A stretch of DNA of 64,000 nt from the IMG/VR virus record IMGVR_UViG_3300046810_000256, positions 19,007 to 83,006 of that record. One strand, written 5' to 3'. Positions within the stretch are counted from its first letter, which is position 1. Each line of letters starts with the position of its first letter. Below the pieces are notes generated by a model, which made no database searches, was not told the DNA's origin, and saw only the letters and a program-made list of their open reading frames with translations. The translations under genes were made by a program, and so were the position numbers. Shown here piece by piece: positions 13,979-54,680 of the stretch. Origin of the DNA: a virus.

Positions 13979-15596
13979 CTAGATTGTCCTCGTTGTCTTT
14001 GTTGCCGCCAGCGTTCGCGCCTGGTGGTAGATCCATGTCGAAGTCGCCGCCACCGCCTGGCTGTACCGGTGGTTTCGCGTTGGCCAGCCCCTTGGCGAAC
14101 ATTTCCGCGCCCTCTGTGTCCATTTCCGCGACCTTGGCCAGCATGTACACCACGACGTCTTCCGGCAGACCCAGCTCACGCAGCTGCGCAAGGATCTGCA
14201 CGAGAATCGCGGCCTTGTTCATCGCTTTTTCGGAGCTCGACTGTTTCTCGGCCTCAAGCGCCGCGATACCGCCGTAGAAATTGATCGTGTAAGGGCGTTC
14301 GGTGTCCGGCCAGCACTTGCCGTACTTGGCCATCATGTGGCGGTCGATGGTGTCGTTGCAGGTCTTGGTGTAGCTGGTGCGCATCATCCGAGCGCGTTCG
14401 GCGCCCATGGCGCTGGTGCGGTTCGATCCGCCGTCGCCCAGGCCGCCCGACAACTGATCAGCGAAACCCATTTGGGAAATATCGGTACCGAGCGTGCCCG
14501 CCAGCTTCTTGGCGTGAAACATCACGTCTTCAATGCCGAGGTTCTGGCCGTTGGCGCCGGAAGCAATGCTGCTCACTTGGGTCAGCTGCTTGTTGTTGGA
14601 AACCGGAATAACGTTGAAATTACGGGACGTCGAATAAACGCCTTCCTGAATCTGCTTGTGCGCCCGCTCTTTCATGGCGGTGAGCATTTTGGTCAGGTTC
14701 TCGATGGTCTTGGCGCGCTGTTCCTTGGTGGTGTCGGCCAGGTCAATCGTCAGCAGAACCTCTTCGATAGAGCTAGCGATACGCTGCCCCACCAGACCGC
14801 GCAGCGCCGAATACAGGTTGTCAAAGTCCTGCTCAGCGGCCTCCAGCAACGAACCGCCCACCAACCCCGGGAGCGGCATGACATCGCGCAGGTTGACGGC
14901 TTCAAGATTGATCTTCTGCGCGTTCTCAATGATTTTCGTCTGAGGCAGCACCAGCATGCGCGGCATTTTCCAGCGCACGATATCCATGTGGCTGAGCTTG
15001 CTCTGCATCTTCTCGCCCAAGCTCACTACATAACCAACTGTGCGGCCCAGTTCTTCATAGGGCTGCACCAGCGGTGTCCAGAGCGTTTCATGGTCGAACG
15101 CCACAAGCCCTTCGCCCTTGATGGTGTACGCGCGAGCGTAGGAGTCGCCAAACCCGGCAGCGTTGAAACCCATGGAGTGGCAGCTGTCGTTCAGCATCTT
15201 GATGACTGGCGCCAGCTCGTCGACCATCTTCTGATCAGCACGACTGATATGCGGCTTCGCCTCAAGGAAAACGGTTTCCCCGGTGGTTTCGTGCCCGCCA
15301 AGTGCCATCTGGACGTTGTTGCGCAGGGCCGTGGAGATAAGCCCTTCCTGCATCATGAAATGGTATTTCATGTAAATCTGCGAGCGGGTGCGCACCGGCT
15401 TGCCGGAGTTGCCCAGCAACATCTCGACGCCGACATAATCCGCATCGAAGGTGTCCACTTGATCCAGTCGCCGCATCGCGTGCTGATTGGCTTCGCTGGC
15501 GCTCATGTCGGAGAGTTGGCCGCCCATGATCAGGTCACGGGCGCCACCAATGAATCGCGACACCAGCCCTTTTTGGGGTTCAGTTGAATTAGCCAT
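13971..15596 (-). CDS. Portal protein (P1 Prt-like)
   Basis: 541 aa; ALGGHETTGETVF, FGDSYAR, GFADQLSGGLGDGG. Confidence 0.8.
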   Translation of the reverse strand: MANSTEPQKGLVSRFIGGARDLIMGGQLSDMSASEANQHAMRRLDQVDTFDADYVGVEMLLGNSGKPVRTRSQIYMKYHFMMQEGLISTALRNNVQMALGGHETTGETVFLEAKPHISRADQKMVDELAPVIKMLNDSCHSMGFNAAGFGDSYARAYTIKGEGLVAFDHETLWTPLVQPYEELGRTVGYVVSLGEKMQSKLSHMDIVRWKMPRMLVLPQTKIIENAQKINLEAVNLRDVMPLPGLVGGSLLEAAEQDFDNLYSALRGLVGQRIASSIEEVLLTIDLADTTKEQRAKTIENLTKMLTAMKERAHKQIQEGVYSTSRNFNVIPVSNNKQLTQVSSIASGANGQNLGIEDVMFHAKKLAGTLGTDISQMGFADQLSGGLGDGGSNRTSAMGAERARMMRTSYTKTCNDTIDRHMMAKYGKCWPDTERPYTINFYGGIAALEAEKQSSSEKAMNKAAILVQILAQLRELGLPEDVVVYMLAKVAEMDTEGAEMFAKGLANAKPPVQPGGGGDFDMDLPPGANAGGNKDNEDNLDE

Positions 15597-17830: not shown

Positions 17831-18126
17831 CAGCGCACCGACCTTGTAGCGGTAACGATGCCGCATTTCTGCTTGAGGTAGGCCAAGTGCTCTCTGGTAG
17901 GCAGCACCACGTCTTTTTCGATCAGCTCAGAGTCAACCGTCGACAGCCCGGCTGCCGCCATGATCGCCAGCGTCTCAGTGGCGTCACCGTACACGCGCAG
18001 CGCCATCATGGGCAGGTGATAGCGCTCGCTCGGGAAACTGCGCACCACTTGGCGACGGGATGAATACGACGGCTCAGTCAGTGCGAACTTGCGCACCTCC
18101 AGATAAAACCGGGCTTCGGGGATCAT
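17830..18126 (-). CDS. Baseplate protein, tail X/LysM-like (P1 gp26-like)
   Basis: ALRVYGDATETLAIMAAAGL...VVLPT. Confidence 0.65.
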   Translation of the reverse strand: MIPEARFYLEVRKFALTEPSYSSRRQVVRSFPSERYHLPMMALRVYGDATETLAIMAAAGLSTVDSELIEKDVVLPTREHLAYLKQKCGIVTATRSVR

Positions 18127-18563
18127 GGGATTTCAACTGCCTGTGATGCTAACGCTTTGGTTCGATCCTTAGCGCCCACCGCGACCTCAACCCGCTCAGC
18201 GCTATCCCAGCGCAACCGCGCCGTCACAGTCATCAATGCCGAAGTGTCCCCCCAGTCATAGAACGCGCCAGGCTCACTAATAACAACCCCGCTGAGCGTG
18301 TACAAGACAATGCCTTTTGCGCCCGAAACGATCTTCGCCGTGAGCTTCTTCCCGTGGACGGCCTCAAGGAATTTCCACGCGTGCCCGGCTTCCGTTTCAT
18401 ACATGGCGAACGGCCCGCTATTGCTACCCGGCATCGGAATAGGCGCCTTGAAGCAAAGCAAGCCGATATCTTCGAAGCCATCAATAACAATCATCATGTC
18501 CACCGCTACATGCCGAGGCCTGCAATTGCATTTCAATCCAGTCATTACACGGGGCTCCATCAA
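18123..18563 (-). CDS. Divergent paralog of tail tube protein
   Basis: DMMIVIDGFEDIGLLCFKAPIP / GPFAMYETEAG / YDWGDTSALM align with DAVLVIHGHEKIQLLCKQFPWP / GPIALYEVQPG / RDWENDTALL of 54136-54606. Confidence 0.6.
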   Translation of the reverse strand: MMEPRVMTGLKCNCRPRHVAVDMMIVIDGFEDIGLLCFKAPIPMPGSNSGPFAMYETEAGHAWKFLEAVHGKKLTAKIVSGAKGIVLYTLSGVVISEPGAFYDWGDTSALMTVTARLRWDSAERVEVAVGAKDRTKALASQAVEIP

Positions 18564-18670: not shown

Positions 18671-19486
18671 CTAGAAATTTCCGTACGTGCCGGGCCGGAA
18701 ATAGGTGTCGCGCGGAAAACCTAAACGTTCATCTTCTTCATCAGCGCTCAGCAGACATATGGCTTCAAGCTCTCGCTCCACTCGTGGGTTCTTTGCTGCG
18801 AGCTCTACAAGGCCTTCGCTATCAACACTCATGTTCAGTGTTGAAACCTGAGACAGCCCTTCCATAGACGGACATTTGATGTCTTTGGTGATAATCCCCT
18901 GCTTGTATCGGTCGATGTATGGTGCGTAGCAGTCCCGATACGTCGCACGCAACAACTCACAGGCGGGACGTGTCTGAAGACAGATTTTACTAAAAAGCAT
19001 GCTTGAGCCCATTTTCCGGAACTCACGCGGCAAAGCGCAGTTAAACGAATGATCTAGGATCATGATCCGAGGGGAGCCCAGCTCGCTGGCGTACGCTTCA
19101 AGGCGCTGCGCGTACTCTCTTTCCTTTCCATGATCGGTGCTGCCGTGAAGTGTGCGCTCACTCAACAGAATTGCCCGACGCCGCCCGCCAGCTTGCCGAG
19201 AGGCGGCGACGATGAAGTGATAGGTGTGGAATCGGTAGTTGTCGCAAACAACCGCCAGAAAGTGTTCAAACGCCTCGCCGTGCTTAATCGGGCCATCACC
19301 AGCCAGCGCATTCTCAACCAACTGAGGGATTTCACTTGCCTTGAGTGAGGCACCGGGATGGCGGATTTTAGTGTTGCCAGAATTCCAAATCTTCACCGTG
19401 GATACGGAATAAGCTGCTTTGCTCAGCTGCCCCATCCGCGCACGGTATTCAAGATTCTCATCGTGACGACTGCGCTTGATAGTCAT
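18671..19486 (-). CDS. Hypothetical protein (lower-GC accessory gene)
   Basis: 271 aa ORF coupled to LytTR gene. Confidence 0.7.
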   Translation of the reverse strand: MTIKRSRHDENLEYRARMGQLSKAAYSVSTVKIWNSGNTKIRHPGASLKASEIPQLVENALAGDGPIKHGEAFEHFLAVVCDNYRFHTYHFIVAASRQAGGRRRAILLSERTLHGSTDHGKEREYAQRLEAYASELGSPRIMILDHSFNCALPREFRKMGSSMLFSKICLQTRPACELLRATYRDCYAPYIDRYKQGIITKDIKCPSMEGLSQVSTLNMSVDSEGLVELAAKNPRVERELEAICLLSADEEDERLGFPRDTYFRPGTYGNF

Positions 19487-20005: not shown

Positions 20006-21556
20006 TTAAGCGACGTCGGCGAGAAGGTCAGCTGCTTTGCTTAGAGTCGCCTGGGCCCGCGAAGACTGAGCCGCCTCGGTTTCTTCACTGCACGCGATGT
20101 AGTTGACGTCCTCAAGGAAGACCATGCAGATGGTGTCAAACAAGTCCGGGGATGACAGGCCATCGGCGGCCATGCTCTCTTTGCTGGCGATCTTGTAGCG
20201 CCCCAGCTCATCGAACGAATACGGCAGTCGTGAGCCTTGGTCGATCAGGTCGCGCTTGTGCTTCTTGCCCAGCTTGACCACGCCGTCTTTGATTGCCTCG
20301 GTGGCATGCACGGTGCATTGCGCGCGCTGGTTGATGAATCGCTTGCGGTTCTCGTTGGAATGCGGCTTGGCGCCCCACAGAACGCCCTGAATGATCATGC
20401 TGCCCTCTTGCAGCTCTTCCAGTCGGCGCTGGAACTGCTTACCCATGGCCGAGACGTCGATAACGATGGTGACGTTTGGCAGGCGCATGGCGTAATCGCG
20501 CAGCTTGACCGCCAGCGGCGTCCAGTCCTCAGTTGCGCTGTAGATCGGCACGTCGACCACCTCCACCCGGCGGCGGCGCTCGTTCGCCATCCGGTCGCCC
20601 TTGCCGGTGACGCGGAAGTGGGTGGCCACGGTCTTGTCTCGCCCAACGCCAGCCGCGACGTCGACAACGATAATGTGGCCCCACTCTTCGCCTGGCAGGA
20701 TCGGGCTCGCCTGCTCTATCGCCCGTTCGATCAGCACCGAACTCAGCAGGTATTTGCTGAGGTTGGTCGGGAACATGCCCCGCACCTTGATCTGATATTC
20801 CGGCTCCATCGTGCCGCCGTACTGGAGCCGCTTTTCCTTGATGAACTTGAGGCTGACAATCGGGCTTTCTTCGGAGTTGAATACCAGCGGTACCCAGCCA
20901 CCGCCGCGGTAGATGGACTGGCCGTGGTGCGTCTCCCAAAAGAAACCGGTAGAGCGCGTCGGCTGGCTGGCCATGATGAAGCGGTTGCGCTCGTCGGTCA
21001 GTGCGCCACCGATTACGCCAAAGTTCTCGTCTGGAATGCCGGACGCTTCGTCCGCCAGCCATAGCAGGTACTCGCCGTGGGTACCGGCCAAGTTCTCAGG
21101 CGAGCCGCGTGGAGCGGTACGGGTGGTGACGTACCATGTGGCGCTGTTACCGACCACATAGACTTTCTCAGCTTGGATAACCACGTAGTCAGCGATCCAC
21201 GCATGCGGCCCTTTGCGGATCTCCGCCAGCATGGTGGTGATTTCCTTCCACACACCCTCTCGCACCGTCTTGAGCTTCGGCGCGGTTACATAGGTGTTGG
21301 AATTGAGATAGCACAGCAGGTGCCAGAGGCAGATGACCCCGAAGCTGCGGGTTTTACCAGTACCGTGGCCAGACGATACCGACACCCGACAGCCGTAGAC
21401 TGAGGATTCATCAAAGAGCTCTTGTTGTTGCGGTGTGACATCCATCAAACACGCTTCAACCGCAAAGGCGTACAGGTTGAAGGCGTAGCGTTCGATGAAA
21501 GCGGGCCACCTCGGGTCTGTTTCTAAGCGCAGACGCTGGGCTTTCGGCTTGGCCAT
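20006..21556 (-). CDS. pacB: Terminase large subunit
   Basis: Walker A SGHGTGKT, Walker B WLADEAS, RNase H-like nuclease VVDVAAG...VID...SPDLFD. Confidence 0.95.
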   Translation of the reverse strand: MAKPKAQRLRLETDPRWPAFIERYAFNLYAFAVEACLMDVTPQQQELFDESSVYGCRVSVSSGHGTGKTRSFGVICLWHLLCYLNSNTYVTAPKLKTVREGVWKEITTMLAEIRKGPHAWIADYVVIQAEKVYVVGNSATWYVTTRTAPRGSPENLAGTHGEYLLWLADEASGIPDENFGVIGGALTDERNRFIMASQPTRSTGFFWETHHGQSIYRGGGWVPLVFNSEESPIVSLKFIKEKRLQYGGTMEPEYQIKVRGMFPTNLSKYLLSSVLIERAIEQASPILPGEEWGHIIVVDVAAGVGRDKTVATHFRVTGKGDRMANERRRRVEVVDVPIYSATEDWTPLAVKLRDYAMRLPNVTIVIDVSAMGKQFQRRLEELQEGSMIIQGVLWGAKPHSNENRKRFINQRAQCTVHATEAIKDGVVKLGKKHKRDLIDQGSRLPYSFDELGRYKIASKESMAADGLSSPDLFDTICMVFLEDVNYIACSEETEAAQSSRAQATLSKAADLLADVA

Positions 21557-21607
21557 ATGATCCTTAAACACAAAGGGGCCAGTTCCCCGGCCCCTGTCAC
21601 TCTACGT

Positions 21608-22327
21608 CTACGCCGTTCGCACTTTCAGAGACGGTTTGCGGTCTTGCGTGGCGTTCAGAACGAACGCTTTCCAGCTGCTGCCAGACGCCCAGCAGCTCAA
21701 CGTGGTTTGTGTCGCCCGGAAAAATCCTTTGCGTCGACCTTGGCCAGAGTGCAACACCATGCCGCCACCGCTGCGGGCAAGCCCTTCACGCGCCACCTGA
21801 AAGCTCACCTCCGGCATGGTGCTGGCGTCCTCCATCAACCACATGGGATCGCGCCCACCGAAACCGGCCATGTGTTCCGGGGAATGCGCGCTGGCGGCCA
21901 GAAAGAGCACGCCACAGCCTGAATACTCTGCCTGCTGGCGAAGTCTGATGCTTCTGATGGTGATTCGCAGGTAACCGACCAACCATGCGTGCTCGCCCTC
22001 AATACGCTTGACCAACTTGCTGTATTGCTCACAGCAGCGAAGCATGTCGCCGAAGGGCACGGCCACCATAGTCATCGACTCGGGGCGGCACAGCAGGCGC
22101 CAGAACGCGATAGGCGCCAGCGGGCTGATCATTCCCCGCTCCATCGGATTCATGTCTGACGCCATCGACACCTGGCAGTCAGGCAGCTGCACACTTTCGA
22201 AGGCTCGCGCCAGTTGATCGTCCACTACCATCCCGCACACCTCACGCGCGAACGCGGCCAGGTCGTTGGCGTAGCGCCGGACGAAAGCGGGCCAGCGCTC
22301 GTCATCTTGAATCAGGCTCGTGCTCAT
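21608..22327 (-). CDS. Degenerate paralog of terminase ATPase domain
   Basis: Colinear with PacB N-terminal ~240 aa (DERWPAFVRRYA vs DPRWPAFIERYA; SPEHMAG vs SPENLAG; RRKGFF vs RSTGFF); Walker A lost. Confidence 0.85.
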   Translation of the reverse strand: MSTSLIQDDERWPAFVRRYANDLAAFAREVCGMVVDDQLARAFESVQLPDCQVSMASDMNPMERGMISPLAPIAFWRLLCRPESMTMVAVPFGDMLRCCEQYSKLVKRIEGEHAWLVGYLRITIRSIRLRQQAEYSGCGVLFLAASAHSPEHMAGFGGRDPMWLMEDASTMPEVSFQVAREGLARSGGGMVLHSGQGRRKGFFRATQTTLSCWASGSSWKAFVLNATQDRKPSLKVRTA

Positions 22328-22923
22328 GCTGCGGCCTCGCTGGCCAGCTGCGCCAACTCGCGCTCGTGTTCGGCGATCAGCAGCGCGCCAGCCTTCTCGA
22401 TGGCGCGAAGTCGTGACTCTTGTTTCATGGGGGCGTGAGGCCATGGCCAGACGGTTGGCGCGAAGTCCGGCACCAGCAGCTGAAGCAAGTAACCCGCCGC
22501 CGCGCGCAGCAGCTCGTCATCGCGATAGCGCAGGTCGCGTTCCGGGTGATACCCCTTCACCAGCAGCTGGCGCTGGCGCTCGCTCAGAATGGCGTTCTCG
22601 CTCGGGCCGGTGATTGGCATGGATGACCACAGCGCCAGCGGCTGCTCCCATCCATTGGCGGCCTTCTGCGCCCATTCAGTTGTGGTCATGCGCGCATATG
22701 GCCGCGTCACGGAAATACCCTGATCACGCCCACGGCGCACCAGAAGCCACGCTTTTGGCTGCTGAGTGGCGTGGCGAGACTGCGCCAGCGATTCCCACAC
22801 CAGAAACGTCTTCTGTGTGTGGGCGTTCACGTACTCGCCCGTCTCGGTGTTGAATGCCAGGTCACTGATACCCGCATGCCGACACGAGCGCTCAAAATGT
22901 TCGCGACTGAAAAAGAGGGTCAT
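22324..22923 (-). CDS. Conserved phage hypothetical protein
   Basis: ERQRQ..KGY..ERD...WPW...KAGALLIAE pattern seen in many phage proteins. Confidence 0.7.
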   Translation of the reverse strand: MTLFFSREHFERSCRHAGISDLAFNTETGEYVNAHTQKTFLVWESLAQSRHATQQPKAWLLVRRGRDQGISVTRPYARMTTTEWAQKAANGWEQPLALWSSMPITGPSENAILSERQRQLLVKGYHPERDLRYRDDELLRAAAGYLLQLLVPDFAPTVWPWPHAPMKQESRLRAIEKAGALLIAEHERELAQLASEAAA

Positions 22924-23180
22924 GGTGTTGTTCCCGCCGCTGCTGGCTTGAATTGAAAGAGTTCGACAGGCGCCGCCGGTAAGTCGAATACGGCGGCGAG
23001 CCATGGGTGGATAGCATCCGGATCGCTGGCGCCGTCGAAGCGCCAGCGTTCTGCCGGGAAGTGTTCGCGCAGTGCGTGCTCGATCTCGCCCGCGCCATTG
23101 CGCAACCACAACTCATTCCCGCACTCACGCTCAACTGACAGCGTTTCGCCGGTCACAAGGTTCGTCACGGTCTGGCTCAC
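22920..23180 (-). CDS. Hypothetical protein
   Basis: Overlap coupling on both sides. Confidence 0.65.
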   Translation of the reverse strand: MSQTVTNLVTGETLSVERECGNELWLRNGAGEIEHALREHFPAERWRFDGASDPDAIHPWLAAVFDLPAAPVELFQFKPAAAGTTP

Positions 23181-23668
23181 TTCATTTCCCCGGTCTTGCG
23201 GTTGATCTCGGTTGGCTTGGTGAAAGCGCGGGAGAATCGGAATTCAGCAATGACCTGATTGAAACTGTGTTCTACCCGGTCGAAATACTGATTCCCTTCG
23301 GCCATCAACGCCTGCGCCAGCCACGCGGCGGGGACGCTGCGCCCCTCTTCCACGTAGGTGGCCAGGCTCCGCACCAGCCGCTGCTCGGCGTAGGTACCGC
23401 TGAAGCCCGGCAGCAAGCGGCCCTTGCCGCGAACCGTCGTCGCCAGATCCACCGGGCGAGCGTCCGCGGTCGGCAGCACCAGATAGAACCCGCCGAGGCG
23501 CTTGGGCTCCAGGCGTGCAACACGGTCTTTTCTGCCAAAGATGCGCAACCCCGCCAGCGCCAGCGAATTGAAAATCAGGTTCGCGGTGTCCAGTCGGTGC
23601 TGCTGGCGCTCAGTCAGCGCGATTGCCGCGGGCGGTGTCAGTTGCACGGGTGCTGCTTGCATATCCAT
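23177..23668 (-). CDS. Hypothetical protein
   Basis: 163 aa ORF in operon. Confidence 0.65.
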   Translation of the reverse strand: MDMQAAPVQLTPPAAIALTERQQHRLDTANLIFNSLALAGLRIFGRKDRVARLEPKRLGGFYLVLPTADARPVDLATTVRGKGRLLPGFSGTYAEQRLVRSLATYVEEGRSVPAAWLAQALMAEGNQYFDRVEHSFNQVIAEFRFSRAFTKPTEINRKTGEMK

Positions 23669-23671
23669 CCC

Positions 23672-23842
23672 CTAAATCTTGAGCCGCATCTGTGCGCGGT
23701 CACATTCGTTTTCACCGTGCGGGAGCTTGTGGGCCAAGGCTTCACAGTTCCTGCGCCCACAATCACGGCAGTAGGTGTAGGCGGGGGCGCTTCGTGGCCT
23801 CCGCCAGATGACGCGATTGCTTTCGCAAAAACGGCAGTTCAT
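23672..23842 (-). CDS. Small Zn-ribbon protein (56 aa, below ORF-track cutoff)
   Basis: MNCRFCESNRVIW...YTYCRDCGRRNCE...; fills the operon gap. Confidence 0.55.
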   Translation of the reverse strand: MNCRFCESNRVIWRRPRSAPAYTYCRDCGRRNCEALAHKLPHGENECDRAQMRLKI

Positions 23843-23868: not shown

Positions 23869-25155
23869 CTAGGCGGGACGCGCTTCGATCATCGCCTGCG
23901 CGTACACCCATCGGCGATTAGCAAAGGCGGCCATGCTTTCGTCTGATTTTTGCTTCAGCGGGCAGTTGATGGCGAAGTCATCGCGCAGCTCTGTCAGGTA
24001 CAGACCCAGCTTCTTCTCTGGCGCTTTCGGCGCGGTGGCCGGGTCGGCGTAGGCTGGCACGGGTTTTTCGACCGCCAGCGGCAGTTCAACGCTGTGATAC
24101 GCCATGCAGAAGGCATCAAACAGGTCGGCGGCTGGGAGTTGGGCGGCTGCGATGTGCGAAGGCTTGGCCACGAGATAGCGATTCTCGGCGCTCAACTCAT
24201 AAGGGATCTTTGAGCCCAACAGCACCAGCGGATCACTCAAGCCGCAATCGGATGGCAGCAGCAGCTTCAGGTTTTTATTCCGAATCGCCTCGGCAGTCAG
24301 AACACTGCATTCAGTGCGGCGGTTCACGAAACGCTTGCCGTTGCCACCTTTTGGCAGCGCTTGACCCATCGTCATTCCGTAACACCTGACATGGGGACTC
24401 ACAACGTCTTGAAGGTACTTGAGCAACTGCACGCCATCGCCGAAGGCATCCACGAGAATCGTCGTAGGGGCTGATAGCGCATTGACGTGCCGCAGCAACG
24501 CATCGCCGTAGGACTTCAGATCACCGCCGTCTGTGAGGATTGGATAGCTGGCCACCTCGACCAGTCGGCGGGCGTCAGGGCTGTCATACACGCGCATGTG
24601 GGCGGCAACAGTCATTCCTCCACGACCAGCACCGCCGAGACGGACACCGATTACATGCTTCGCCTCGACACCCTCGGGAATCGGGCTTTCGATGGTCAGC
24701 GCCAGGGCGATATCGGCGTCACTGAGCAGGTAGCCGCGACGATCCTGATTCTGCGCCCGAAGAATCGCGGGGACTTCGTTGTTCGAAGCCATCAATGCAG
24801 GCTGTACCTTGCCTTTGACCACCACTTGCAGCTGGCCAGATGAATTAGGACGAACGATGTCTTTGATGGCCGTCGCCACCGGGGAGGCCAGGTAACTGGT
24901 CAGCAGCGGGCGCAGGCGGTAGTGGGTTTGTGCGAATCGCTGTTTACGGCCAAAGCCTTCCTGAACCGACACGGGCTTACAGTTCGGAACATCTACCCAG
25001 TAATGCACACCACGGGCGGCATTAGCGCGATCCGGCGCCGATACCTTGTAACCTTGGGTGATGAGCCATTGCTTGAAGGACGTCACGTTGCACGCCAACA
25101 GCAGATCGGTGTCGTGCGATTGTCCTTTCGGTTTTACTGCGGGGTTCGACATCAT
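23869..25155 (-). CDS. Protein containing a degenerate paralog of terminase nuclease domain
   Basis: About residues 140-357 colinear with PacB C-terminus (KRFVNRRTEC vs KRFINQRAQC; GSKIPY vs GSRLPY; ADLFDAFCM vs PDLFDTICM). Confidence 0.85.
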   Translation of the reverse strand: MMSNPAVKPKGQSHDTDLLLACNVTSFKQWLITQGYKVSAPDRANAARGVHYWVDVPNCKPVSVQEGFGRKQRFAQTHYRLRPLLTSYLASPVATAIKDIVRPNSSGQLQVVVKGKVQPALMASNNEVPAILRAQNQDRRGYLLSDADIALALTIESPIPEGVEAKHVIGVRLGGAGRGGMTVAAHMRVYDSPDARRLVEVASYPILTDGGDLKSYGDALLRHVNALSAPTTILVDAFGDGVQLLKYLQDVVSPHVRCYGMTMGQALPKGGNGKRFVNRRTECSVLTAEAIRNKNLKLLLPSDCGLSDPLVLLGSKIPYELSAENRYLVAKPSHIAAAQLPAADLFDAFCMAYHSVELPLAVEKPVPAYADPATAPKAPEKKLGLYLTELRDDFAINCPLKQKSDESMAAFANRRWVYAQAMIEARPA

Positions 25156-25442
25156 TCAGCTCCTAGCGGGTTGGCCGTGAACGGCCTCAGATTTTTTGTG
25201 TTCCCGCGGCGGATGGCCGAGGGACGTTTTTCAACAACAGGCTTGATCCACAGCTGCCCTGTTTTGAACAGGAACAGCTCCCACAGCCCAAGCTTGATTT
25301 TGGTGTCACCCTTCTCGTACAGACGCCACGATTCGCGGCTCACGTAGATCAGCTCCCCCGCAGCGGTTTCGCTCAGGCTCGCGTTCTTGCGGGCTTGCCG
25401 GATGTTTTTTGGGGTCGGTTCGCGGTCGGCGGGGAGCGTCAT
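25152..25442 (-). CDS. XRE-family HTH protein
   Basis: IRQARKNASLSETAAGELIYVSRESWRLYEKG. Confidence 0.85.
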   Translation of the reverse strand: MTLPADREPTPKNIRQARKNASLSETAAGELIYVSRESWRLYEKGDTKIKLGLWELFLFKTGQLWIKPVVEKRPSAIRRGNTKNLRPFTANPLGAE

Positions 25443-26566
25443 GCGTCACCGCCGTTATCATCCAGCCCGGCGATATCGGCCATACGCTGGGCCATCGCGT
25501 CTCTCTGCGCTTGTGTGGCCTGCATGCCTTTCGCGTAGGCGTCATTCAGCGCAACCGTATCTACAACGGCCACAGGCGCCTGCGCCGGTTCGATATTCAT
25601 GTTGAAGATGCGGCCCAGCATTTCGAGGTAAGGGCGGGCGTCGTGGATCTTCATTTCCAGCCCATCTTTGGTTTCCTTCACGCCGCCGTACAGAGCCAGC
25701 GCGCCAGGCGAAAGGTGCCGGGTGTCTTTGAGCACGAGCTGGCCAATGCCATTGCCATTGCACTCAGGGCATTCCGGGTTAGGGTCGAGGTTGGCGTCGA
25801 AGCCCAGGCCGCCCAGCTCGTCGAGCACCGGTAACGGCTTGCGCTTCGCGGCCTTGGCTTCGGCCAGCGCCTCAGCATGGCGCGCCTTGCGCTCTTCCAG
25901 CTGACGCGGGGTCATCTGGTACCGGAAATCTTTGCCGTGGCAGCACCGGCAGCAGCGGTAAACGTATTCGACCAACTCCCGAGGGTCTGCCATCGCCGCG
26001 CCGTAGATGCGCTGAATGACTCGCCCGGTGATTTCCTCAGTCTTGGCAAACAGCTCCGCACGCTTGGCCAGCGTGTATGGGTGTTCCTTAACCTTCTTTA
26101 ACAGGCGACTGGCTGCTGCTGCCGCCACTGCATCGGATTTGCACTCGTAGCCTGCATCGAGATAGGACTGAGTGCCGTTTTGTGTGACCAGCCAAAGGTC
26201 GACAAACTTCGCCTGACGGGCGTCGAGATCGTGCAGACTCCCGGCCTGCAAGGCTTCCAGCTCTTTCGGTTTCAGCTTGACCGCTTTCTTCACTCGGGTG
26301 CTGCCGCCTGTTCCGCGAGGCGTTTTTGCTTGCGCCGGAGCACCCGGTACCGCCGCAGCAGGTTTTGCAGCACGGGGCTTTCGGGCTAAAGTAGCAGGCT
26401 TTTTAGGTGTCTTTGGAGAGGTGGCTTTTTGAACGCGGCCAGCACTCACCTTAACTTCTGGCTTTTTAGGGGGTGCAAACACAGGTTTGCCAGCCTTGTC
26501 CGGGGATTGATTATCCTCGGCTGGCTTAGCGCGCTCTTCGATACCCTCGATCTTTTTCCGTGCCAC
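25439..26566 (-). CDS. pacA: Terminase small subunit with Cys-rich Zn insertion
   Basis: RQAKFVDLWL..NGTQSYLDAGY...AASRLLK HTH; CRCCHG and CPECNGNG; GVKETKDGLE. Confidence 0.85.
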   Translation of the reverse strand: MARKKIEGIEERAKPAEDNQSPDKAGKPVFAPPKKPEVKVSAGRVQKATSPKTPKKPATLARKPRAAKPAAAVPGAPAQAKTPRGTGGSTRVKKAVKLKPKELEALQAGSLHDLDARQAKFVDLWLVTQNGTQSYLDAGYECKSDAVAAAAASRLLKKVKEHPYTLAKRAELFAKTEEITGRVIQRIYGAAMADPRELVEYVYRCCRCCHGKDFRYQMTPRQLEERKARHAEALAEAKAAKRKPLPVLDELGGLGFDANLDPNPECPECNGNGIGQLVLKDTRHLSPGALALYGGVKETKDGLEMKIHDARPYLEMLGRIFNMNIEPAQAPVAVVDTVALNDAYAKGMQATQAQRDAMAQRMADIAGLDDNGGDA

Positions 26567-54135: not shown

Positions 54136-54606
54136 TTACTTGTTGGCAAACCAGTGGAAGTGCAGCGTGCCCGCCAACAGCAGCGCCGTATCGTTTTCCC
54201 AGTCGCGATCAGGGGTATCCATCACCATAAAGGCGCCCTTGATATCGTGGCTGTAAGCGTTGTCTTCTGGACGTCCAGCGTATGCCGTCGCTTCGAACAC
54301 GCCGCCGTTCTCGATCATCTTGATCAGCTCTTCGCCCACGGTGCCTGGCTGCACTTCATAGAGCGCAATTGGGCCTTCGAATTTGGTTTTGTTGTTCTGC
54401 GGCTGCGCCATCGCCTGCCCGTTGGGGCCAAAAAATTCCATGGCATCTTTGACCGTCGCCACCGGCCACGGGAACTGCTTGCACAGCAGTTGGATTTTTT
54501 CGTGACCGTGAATGACCAGCACCGCGTCGGCGGTCGAGGCTTTGCGCCCCAGGTCTAGCGTGTTTTGAAAGGTCTGAGAAAGCACCTGATGCGTGTTGAC
54601 TGTCAT
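54136..54606 (-). CDS. Tail tube protein (P1 BplB-like)
   Basis: LLCKQFPWP...GPNG...QPQ...DRDWEN...GTLHFHWF; own late promoter. Confidence 0.7.
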   Translation of the reverse strand: MTVNTHQVLSQTFQNTLDLGRKASTADAVLVIHGHEKIQLLCKQFPWPVATVKDAMEFFGPNGQAMAQPQNNKTKFEGPIALYEVQPGTVGEELIKMIENGGVFEATAYAGRPEDNAYSHDIKGAFMVMDTPDRDWENDTALLLAGTLHFHWFANK

Positions 54607-54639
54607 CGGGGACACCCCTGAGTGTGTGTATTCAGGGCA

Positions 54640-54680
54640 ATCATCGGGCAAAAAAAACCCCGCACAGCGGCGGGGTTTGC
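54640..54680 (-). promoter_or_regulatory. Late-promoter motif copy 7, overlapping terminator
   Basis: GCAAA-N30-GATGAT; spacer CCCCGC..GCGGGG-T8. Confidence 0.7.

Follow-up and report, generated by a model that had tools for sequence, protein, structure and literature searches.

A putative pseudo-ATPase paralog of the large terminase lies between pacA and pacB in Pseudomonas P1-like phage-plasmids

Results

A terminase paralog beside an intact terminase

The packaging region of a P1-like phage-plasmid encodes, immediately upstream of its intact large terminase gene, a protein (ATPpar) that sequence comparison supports as a pseudoenzyme paralog of the viral packaging ATPase. The window that we analyzed is a stretch of 64,000 nucleotides, the final 64 kb of an 83-kb IMG/VR virus record, and all genes discussed here lie on its minus strand (Table 1). 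By gene content the element is assigned to the P1-like myovirus phage-plasmids, in their Pseudomonas branch: its PHROG matches include portal, tail sheath, baseplate and PmgG-like head morphogenesis proteins, and its relatives are Pseudomonas plasmids of 80–95 kb. A megablast search of the phage collection with this region gave no match. In the direction of transcription the gene order is pacA, HTH96, NUCpar, Zn56, o163, o86, o199, ATPpar, hairpin, pacB. The resident TerL is 35% identical to P1 PacB (E 2e-91), and no sequence-level relative of it was found in the PDB. Its mechanical open reading frame (20006–21571) opens at a GTG at 21571, within the tail of the hairpin; the start of pacB is probably the ATG at 21556, which is preceded by an AAGGA ribosome-binding site.

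Table 1. Features of the packaging region, with positions in the window.
Feature	Position	Strand	Evidence and remarks
pacA / small terminase (TerS)	25439..26566	-	Pfam Terminase_2, E 1e-13; phrog_51 match
HTH96, small XRE-type helix-turn-helix protein	25152..25442	-	weak Pfam HTH_31 and NCBIfam matches; syntenic in all clades
NUCpar, 428 aa	23869..25155	-	middle part a degenerate copy of the PacB nuclease domain
Zn56, 56 aa, CxxC...CxxC	23672..23842	-	conserved in all clades
o163, cassette ORF	23177..23668	-	
o86, small cassette ORF	22920..23180	-	
o199, 199 aa	22324..22923	-	stop codon shares ATGA with the ATPpar start; precedes ATPpar in all clades examined
ATPpar, 239 aa, stand-alone P-loop-less paralog of the PacB/TerL ATPase domain	21608..22327	-	BLASTP, orthologs, AlphaFold2/Foldseek, dN/dS
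Promoter-like element GCAAACC-N-TAGAGT	21599..21639	-	lies in the ATPpar 3' end, upstream of pacB
GC-rich hairpin, 9-bp stem, then U-rich tail	21574..21595	-	after the ATPpar stop, ahead of the ribosome-binding site of pacB
pacB / large terminase (TerL), intact	20006..21556	-	phrog_2 match; Walker A SGHGTGKT and Walker B LADEAS present
o271	18671..19486	-	two genes downstream of pacB; PacB nuclease-domain-like by profile match

BLASTP aligns ATPpar with residues 16–242 of the neighbouring TerL (71 identities in 233 positions, 30%; E 7e-28). This match is far beyond chance and specific to the resident PacB lineage; pairwise comparison of ATPpar with P1 PacB gave no similarity (E 0.39). An initial annotation of this DNA had read the segment from 21608 to 22327 as an ATPase-domain paralog of a terminase, and both this alignment and the family tree, where ATPpar falls in a single clade beside the Pseudomonas PacB branch, bear that reading out; the blocks that it had listed as shared (RWPAF..RYA, LLC, HAW, SPE..AG, GFF and SLK) are all present in the alignment of ATPpar with TerL. 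The PHROG family phrog_5902 is matched by ATPpar and the resident TerL alike, and searches of Pfam, NCBIfam and PADLOC returned no match for ATPpar, TerL or NUCpar. Translation of ATPpar starts at the Met at 22327 in all 11 close orthologs (the mechanical open reading frame extends to 22444). The protein ends at about TerL residue 242, so that the C-terminal RNase H-like nuclease domain is absent from the chain; a stop codon, a hairpin and then a separate, complete TerL follow.

AlphaFold2 run on a 12-sequence alignment gave a pLDDT of 55. We therefore used a model (pLDDT 92.4) built on a 97-row alignment, which included TerLs and thus biases the model toward the TerL ATPase fold. The top matches of this model in a Foldseek search of the PDB are the TerL ATPase domains of P74-26, HK97, T4, Sf6 and D6E. 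The modeling shows ATPpar with the TerL ATPase fold, which the protein is thus predicted to keep.

Loss of the ATP site

In the BLASTP alignment, the P-loop of TerL (VSVSSGHGTGKT) is paired with VSMASDMNPMERG in ATPpar: the Walker A motif SGHGTGKT has become SDMNPMERG, and the Walker B motif WLADEAS has become WLMEDAS, with the D-E pair inverted to E-D. The signature GK[ST] is absent from 12 of 12 close orthologs, from the version in pKF715C and from the other representative clusters of the family. W-L-x-E is invariant among the close orthologs, and the inversion recurs across the family, since many of the distant stand-alone members carry W-L-x-E-D-A.

We compared 34 members of the paralog family column by column with 44 PacB-type TerLs, using as cut-off a conservation of at least 80% in the TerLs (Q49, S64, S67, G68, G70, G72, K73, H165, D174, E175, S177, P204 and R206). 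Every position for nucleotide binding or hydrolysis that passes this cut-off is relaxed in the paralogs. Leu takes the place of the adenine-binding Gln (Q49), the P-loop is relaxed throughout (S64, S67, G68, G70, G72 and K73), the invariant His before Walker B (H165) is Gly or variable, and the coupling motif SQPTR is lost (P204 and R206). The Walker B Asp (D174) is Glu in 79% of the family, and the catalytic Glu (E175) is Asp in 59% and Asn, Gly or Glu in some members. The equivalent of R206 is conserved in 24% of the paralogs, and no candidate trans-acting Arg is conserved among them. Kept, or more conserved than in TerL, are an N-terminal helical block (D9, R11, A20, L23, A25, F26, A27 and C31), the core strands of the sheet, PE.LAG and W163-L164-x-E166. 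The C-terminal third is poorly conserved across the family and often shortened.

The comparison gives good support to the view of ATPpar as a pseudo-ATPase, predicted to lack all residues for ATP binding and hydrolysis, and shows that the protein should be incapable of using the canonical ATP site. Three further points of the initial annotation hold up here: the destruction of Walker A, seen in the alignment and, as the lack of GK[ST], across the family; the swap of D and E in Walker B, which is evident in the alignment and has frequent E-D counterparts in the family; and the description of the module as ATP-blind, which is well supported by relaxation at all of the conserved nucleotide-handling positions.

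Distribution, origin and selection

A word-indexed search recovered 11 orthologous clusters of 236–240 residues that are 56–95% identical to ATPpar, and an exhaustive profile search of 1.84 billion representatives recovered 122 relatives. The full-length TerLs among these all carry S-x-x-SGHGTGK[ST] and h-h-h-h-DEA. About 34 clusters (clustering at 50% identity) are stand-alone proteins of 185–262 residues with intact open reading frames, none of which has GK[ST]; the most divergent are 23–31% identical to the window protein. In a maximum-likelihood tree the 34 stand-alone members fall together on one side of a branch supported at 98% (SH-aLRT), and the PacB clade of the window's own element is the first to branch on the other side. 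This placement, together with the lack of pairwise similarity to P1 PacB, indicates that the family arose by duplication within the Pseudomonas lineage. Thus the phylogeny shows ATPpar as a predicted duplicate of its own element's PacB lineage, born in the Pseudomonas branch of the P1-like phage-plasmids.

All named members of the family are from Pseudomonas, on contigs of 81–88 kb, and the pair of ATPpar and PacB is present in 2 of 401 sampled Pseudomonadaceae species genomes. Family members are annotated solely as 'hypothetical protein', with no functional annotation, and our literature search found no description of a dead terminase paralog. Scans of viral contigs with five queries (P0020, P0032, P0026, P0077 and P0087) returned no relatives.

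Pairwise dN/dS values are 0.11–0.26 for ATPpar, 0.04–0.09 for TerL and 0.17–0.30 for NUCpar. ATPpar is under purifying selection that is about two to three times more relaxed than that on TerL, and it bears no marks of a pseudogene: its reading frame is intact in all relatives and its dN/dS is well below 1. The subclades of ATPpar do not follow TerL similarity; an element whose TerL is 84% identical to that of the window (G351/L027) has an ATPpar of another subclade, only 32% identical. No proteins of the region diverge more than ATPpar, NUCpar and o271, which are 30–42% identical where TerL is 84% identical, and the genes flanking TerL are likewise divergent (39–60% at the same TerL identity).

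The cassette between pacA and pacB

ATPpar lies directly upstream of pacB in all seven elements for which context is available: the window, L009, L010 and L011 (TerL about 91% identical to that of the window), L027 (represented with G351; 84%), and L007 (plasmid pKF715C) and L012 (66–67%). The order kept in these seven elements is pacA, HTH, X (NUCpar or its counterpart), Zn56, a small open reading frame, o199, ATPpar, hairpin, pacB. Starts and stops overlap by 4 bp at pacA/HTH96, HTH96/NUCpar, o86/o199 and o199/ATPpar; this arrangement shows ATPpar as the last gene of what would be a translationally coupled cassette, or operon, beginning with pacA. In phage P1, pacA abuts pacB and the cassette is absent; in L014 (TerL 37% identical) the matches to TerS and TerL are no more than about 65 bp apart, again with the cassette absent; and in L013 (TerL 40% identical) no copy of ATPpar was found. 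The cassette is therefore best regarded as a lineage-specific insertion.

Some other features of these genes were observed. PacA has an N-terminal tail of about 100 residues rich in Lys, Pro and Ala, and a Cys-rich segment of CxxC type is inserted within its Terminase_2 domain. The orthologs of o199 begin at MTLFF, and the C-terminal ~80 residues of o199 match eight PHROG families of proteins of 186–685 residues with no assigned function; by these matches this part is a widespread phage domain. A search for o199 in the ESM Atlas gave no lead. The 114-kb Pseudomonas psychrotolerans plasmid CP018759.1 (W01) has two TerL matches of equal score, at 13981–14619 and 108223–108861, about 94 kb apart; an overlap in the assembly or a partial duplication may be the cause, and the plasmid has no ATPpar.

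A regulatory boundary before pacB

The hairpin follows directly on the ATPpar stop codon (read 21595 to 21574 on the coding strand; minimum free energy -21.1 kcal/mol, z -2.2). In L027, L007 and L012 the same place is taken by a hairpin of another sequence, and in each of six lineages a hairpin with a sequence of its own is found just downstream of a promoter-like box. In those six lineages the GCAAACC and CGTA(G/C)AGTG boxes are invariant and have fixed spacing, while the sequence of the ATPpar 3' end around them varies. The 9-mer CGTAGAGTG taken alone has no repeat in the window; it is the -10-like part of a longer spaced pattern, GCAAA-N31-A-NNN-T, that occurs 21 times in the window against an expectation of 8.6 ± 3.5, a count that none of 100 shuffles reached. 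Of these copies 17 are on the coding strand, and one is the element at the ATPpar 3' end. The simplest reading of these sequence features is that pacB would have its own promoter and that the hairpin would end or dampen the transcript of the pacA cassette. Because the hairpin and the promoter-like box separate ATPpar from pacB, production of the two proteins in fixed proportion would not be required.

Other PacB-derived proteins

Residues ~73–362 of NUCpar are a degenerate copy of residues ~200–490 of PacB, the nuclease domain (hhalign alignment to PacB ~200–480, probability 99.8%, E 5e-28; BLASTP against PacB/TerL, E 2e-21), and are flanked by conserved N- and C-terminal domains that are unrelated to PacB. 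The first catalytic Asp is replaced by Arg172, which is invariant in the orthologs; a second acidic position is also lost, and two others are retained. The counterpart of NUCpar in pKF715C and L012 shares these N- and C-terminal domains but lacks the nuclease-like insert. ATPpar thus does not depend on the insert, since these two elements have ATPpar without it. We also considered whether ATPpar and NUCpar are the two halves of one split copy, and rejected this: they overlap on PacB residues ~200–242, their genes are in reverse order, and ATPpar occurs without the insert in pKF715C and L012.

Profile comparison of the o271 orthologs with a TerL alignment (hhalign) gave a probability of 94.5% and an E value of 7.5e-8 over 195 columns, and the ortholog in G351 matches TerL by BLASTP with an E value of 9e-5. 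By these matches o271 is probably a third degenerate PacB-derived protein of the packaging region, similar to the nuclease domain. Elsewhere in the window, a 146-residue open reading frame (18123–18563, minus strand) is weakly similar to one of 171 residues (54136–54651, minus strand; 25% identity over 126 residues, E 2e-5), and this similarity makes it a possible further paralog, in shortened form, of a virion gene.

Discussion

Proposed role of ATPpar

We propose that ATPpar is a non-catalytic accessory component or regulator of the machinery for pac cleavage and packaging (the pacase) and is produced along with PacA; we judge the chances of this proposal to be about even. ATPpar would be co-produced with PacA as an accessory or regulatory packaging component and would act through protein-protein or protein-DNA contacts, without catalysis. 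It might, for example, hold PacA or PacB inactive, or correctly assembled, until a procapsid is available. The N-terminal helical block, which is lineage-specific, and the W-L-x-E-D face would most likely make up its contact surface, because these are the conserved parts of the protein. The residues that have been retained are lineage-specific and ATPpar has no similarity to P1 PacB, which points to a partner encoded by the element; since the features are specific to the PacB of this lineage, a packaging component of the element itself (PacA, PacB, the portal or pac DNA) would be a likelier partner than a broad host sensor. Several observations count against an accessory role: ATPpar evolves faster than its neighbours, which would also fit a role in conflict or specificity; its C-terminal third is poorly conserved and often shortened; and the hairpin and promoter-like box set it apart from pacB.

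In a different reading, ATPpar and the other cassette proteins would interfere with the pacases of related P1-like elements that are co-resident or superinfecting, or else ATPpar would fit PacA to its own pac site, with diversification of alleles as the outcome. The high divergence of ATPpar, NUCpar and o271 relative to TerL, the failure of ATPpar subclades to track TerL similarity and the lineage-specific character of the retained features would all fit. However, dN/dS is well below 1 overall, and all genes flanking TerL are divergent too, so that ATPpar is no clear outlier; we regard this reading as unlikely. Quite unlikely, in our view, is a poison or brake, an idea of the initial annotation, which also took the interaction surfaces to be kept. 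ATPpar would here insert into or cap the ring or spiral of PacB ATPase domains and slow or block translocation or headful cutting. ATPpar shares its fold with the PacB ATPase domain, and the acidic pair at Walker B, often kept as E-D, could receive the basic finger of a neighbouring subunit. But ATPpar has neither the nuclease domain nor the coupling motif, and such a poison would be directed at the element's own motor, from a gene in the packaging region and with no visible relief; the decay of the C-terminal third and the lack of a conserved trans-acting Arg (the R206 equivalent being so rarely kept) do not favor mimicry of a ring subunit. That the duplicate has no function and is simply decaying is extremely improbable: the catalytic residues are gone and evolution is faster than that of TerL, but open reading frames are intact in the ~34 clusters even at the lowest identities, dN/dS stays in the range given above, and length, position and start are conserved, all of which contradict a pseudogene.

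Two other readings place the function of ATPpar outside packaging. Host sensors bind the TerL ATPase domain directly (PMC13601566), and the stand-alone TerL-ATPase-like protein vs.8 of phage T4 engages EcAvs2 (PMC13601566); ATPpar could thus be a decoy that imitates the terminase ATPase fold and occupies host TerL sensors (Avs1-3, Upx) without triggering them, and it is consistent with this that the genome has several degenerate copies of core virion or packaging proteins. Yet Avs2 and Avs3 read TerL-bound ATP and active-site residues (PMC13601566), exactly what ATPpar has lost, its kept features are lineage-specific and not the universal pattern that a broad sensor would require, and it matches no PADLOC or anti-defence family, so that a decoy seems very doubtful. 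It is likewise improbable that ATPpar and the two degenerate PacB nuclease-like proteins, possibly with the putative shortened tail-tube paralog of 146 residues, are together 'blind' mimics of signature virion and packaging proteins that soak up host pattern-recognition immune sensors; the sensors, for example ones that grip the ATPase core independently of the active site, would then not be set off. If true, such mimicry would be a hitherto undescribed type of counter-defence by decoy. The remaining reading is that of a re-used scaffold, in which ATPpar, o199, X/NUCpar, Zn56 and HTH96 jointly serve some cassette function other than packaging, and its adjacency to pacB marks only its birthplace. 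The other cassette genes have no known function, and the cassette could therefore serve something besides packaging; ATPpar co-occurs with o199, Zn56, X and HTH96, shows translational coupling to o199 in every clade with context, and is divided, like the rest of the cassette, from pacB by the hairpin and promoter-like box. We nevertheless think it very unlikely, as the cassette begins with pacA, has kept its place between these two genes, pacA and pacB, over deep divergence (TerL 66–91% identical), and holds a second PacB-derived domain, that of NUCpar.

Comparison with known systems

Non-catalytic paralog subunits are found in other ATPase machines, among them the delta-prime subunit of the clamp loader and the RAD51 paralogs. 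The likeness of ATPpar to these, which we offer as an analogy only, would be that a fold is kept, nucleotide handling is lost, and the protein is selected beside an active relative. With the ATPase domains of P1 PacB and other TerLs (ASCE P-loop), the likeness is one of homologous sequence and the same predicted fold, by derivation from PacB of its own lineage. In contrast to those domains, ATPpar is without Walker A, the Gln of the Q motif, the invariant His, SQPTR and the nuclease domain, and its Walker B is E-D, with the second position variable. The closest described case is T4 vs.8, which is likewise a separate gene, with a TerL-ATPase-like domain only, beside a complete TerL (PMC13601566). 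It is homologous to the T4 terminase's ATPase domain and, as reported, retains Walker A and B and shows toxicity with EcAvs2 (PMC13601566). By comparison with this published description, ATPpar has lost both Walker motifs, belongs to the PacB branch and not to the gp17 branch, lies in the pacA-pacB interval, and is part of a conserved family of its own.

A second dead copy was found in a Citrobacter freundii P1-like plasmid (NZ_CP114569.1, 36781–37572; L036, 4998–5789). This stand-alone protein of 263 residues corresponds to the N-terminal part of PacB, matches the window TerL with an E value of 6e-28, is about 40% identical to enterobacterial PacB, and has P-N in place of D-E at Walker B. Unlike ATPpar, it overlaps the end of ref, is not in the pacA-pacB interval, and keeps the Lys at the P-loop position. 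It probably arose separately from the ATPpar family, with the qualification that an AU test on separate origins for two smaller groups of short P-loop-less proteins did not reject a single-origin tree (p 0.124). Loss-of-function copies of the terminase may thus arise repeatedly in the P1-like group.

Packaging motors are usually treated as assemblies of the small and large terminase only. A conserved, catalytically dead copy of the motor's ATPase domain within the packaging operon of an entire P1-like phage-plasmid lineage suggests an extra, non-enzymatic layer of control. Such control could bear on pac cleavage or the assembly of the motor, on how elements compete, or on host immunity. The ATPpar family, with its ~34 clusters, is a defined and experimentally tractable set of terminase pseudoenzymes.

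Among the related PacB-type TerLs we also observed many of 640–860 residues with an insertion placed exactly within the P-loop, before TGK[ST] (P0028, P0034, P0050, P0051, P0054, P0066, P0070, P0102, P0121 and P0132; L021 and L022; plasmids H18 and H20). Two plasmids annotate such TerLs as Hint-domain homing endonuclease, and from their sequences the insertions look like inteins at the Walker A site.
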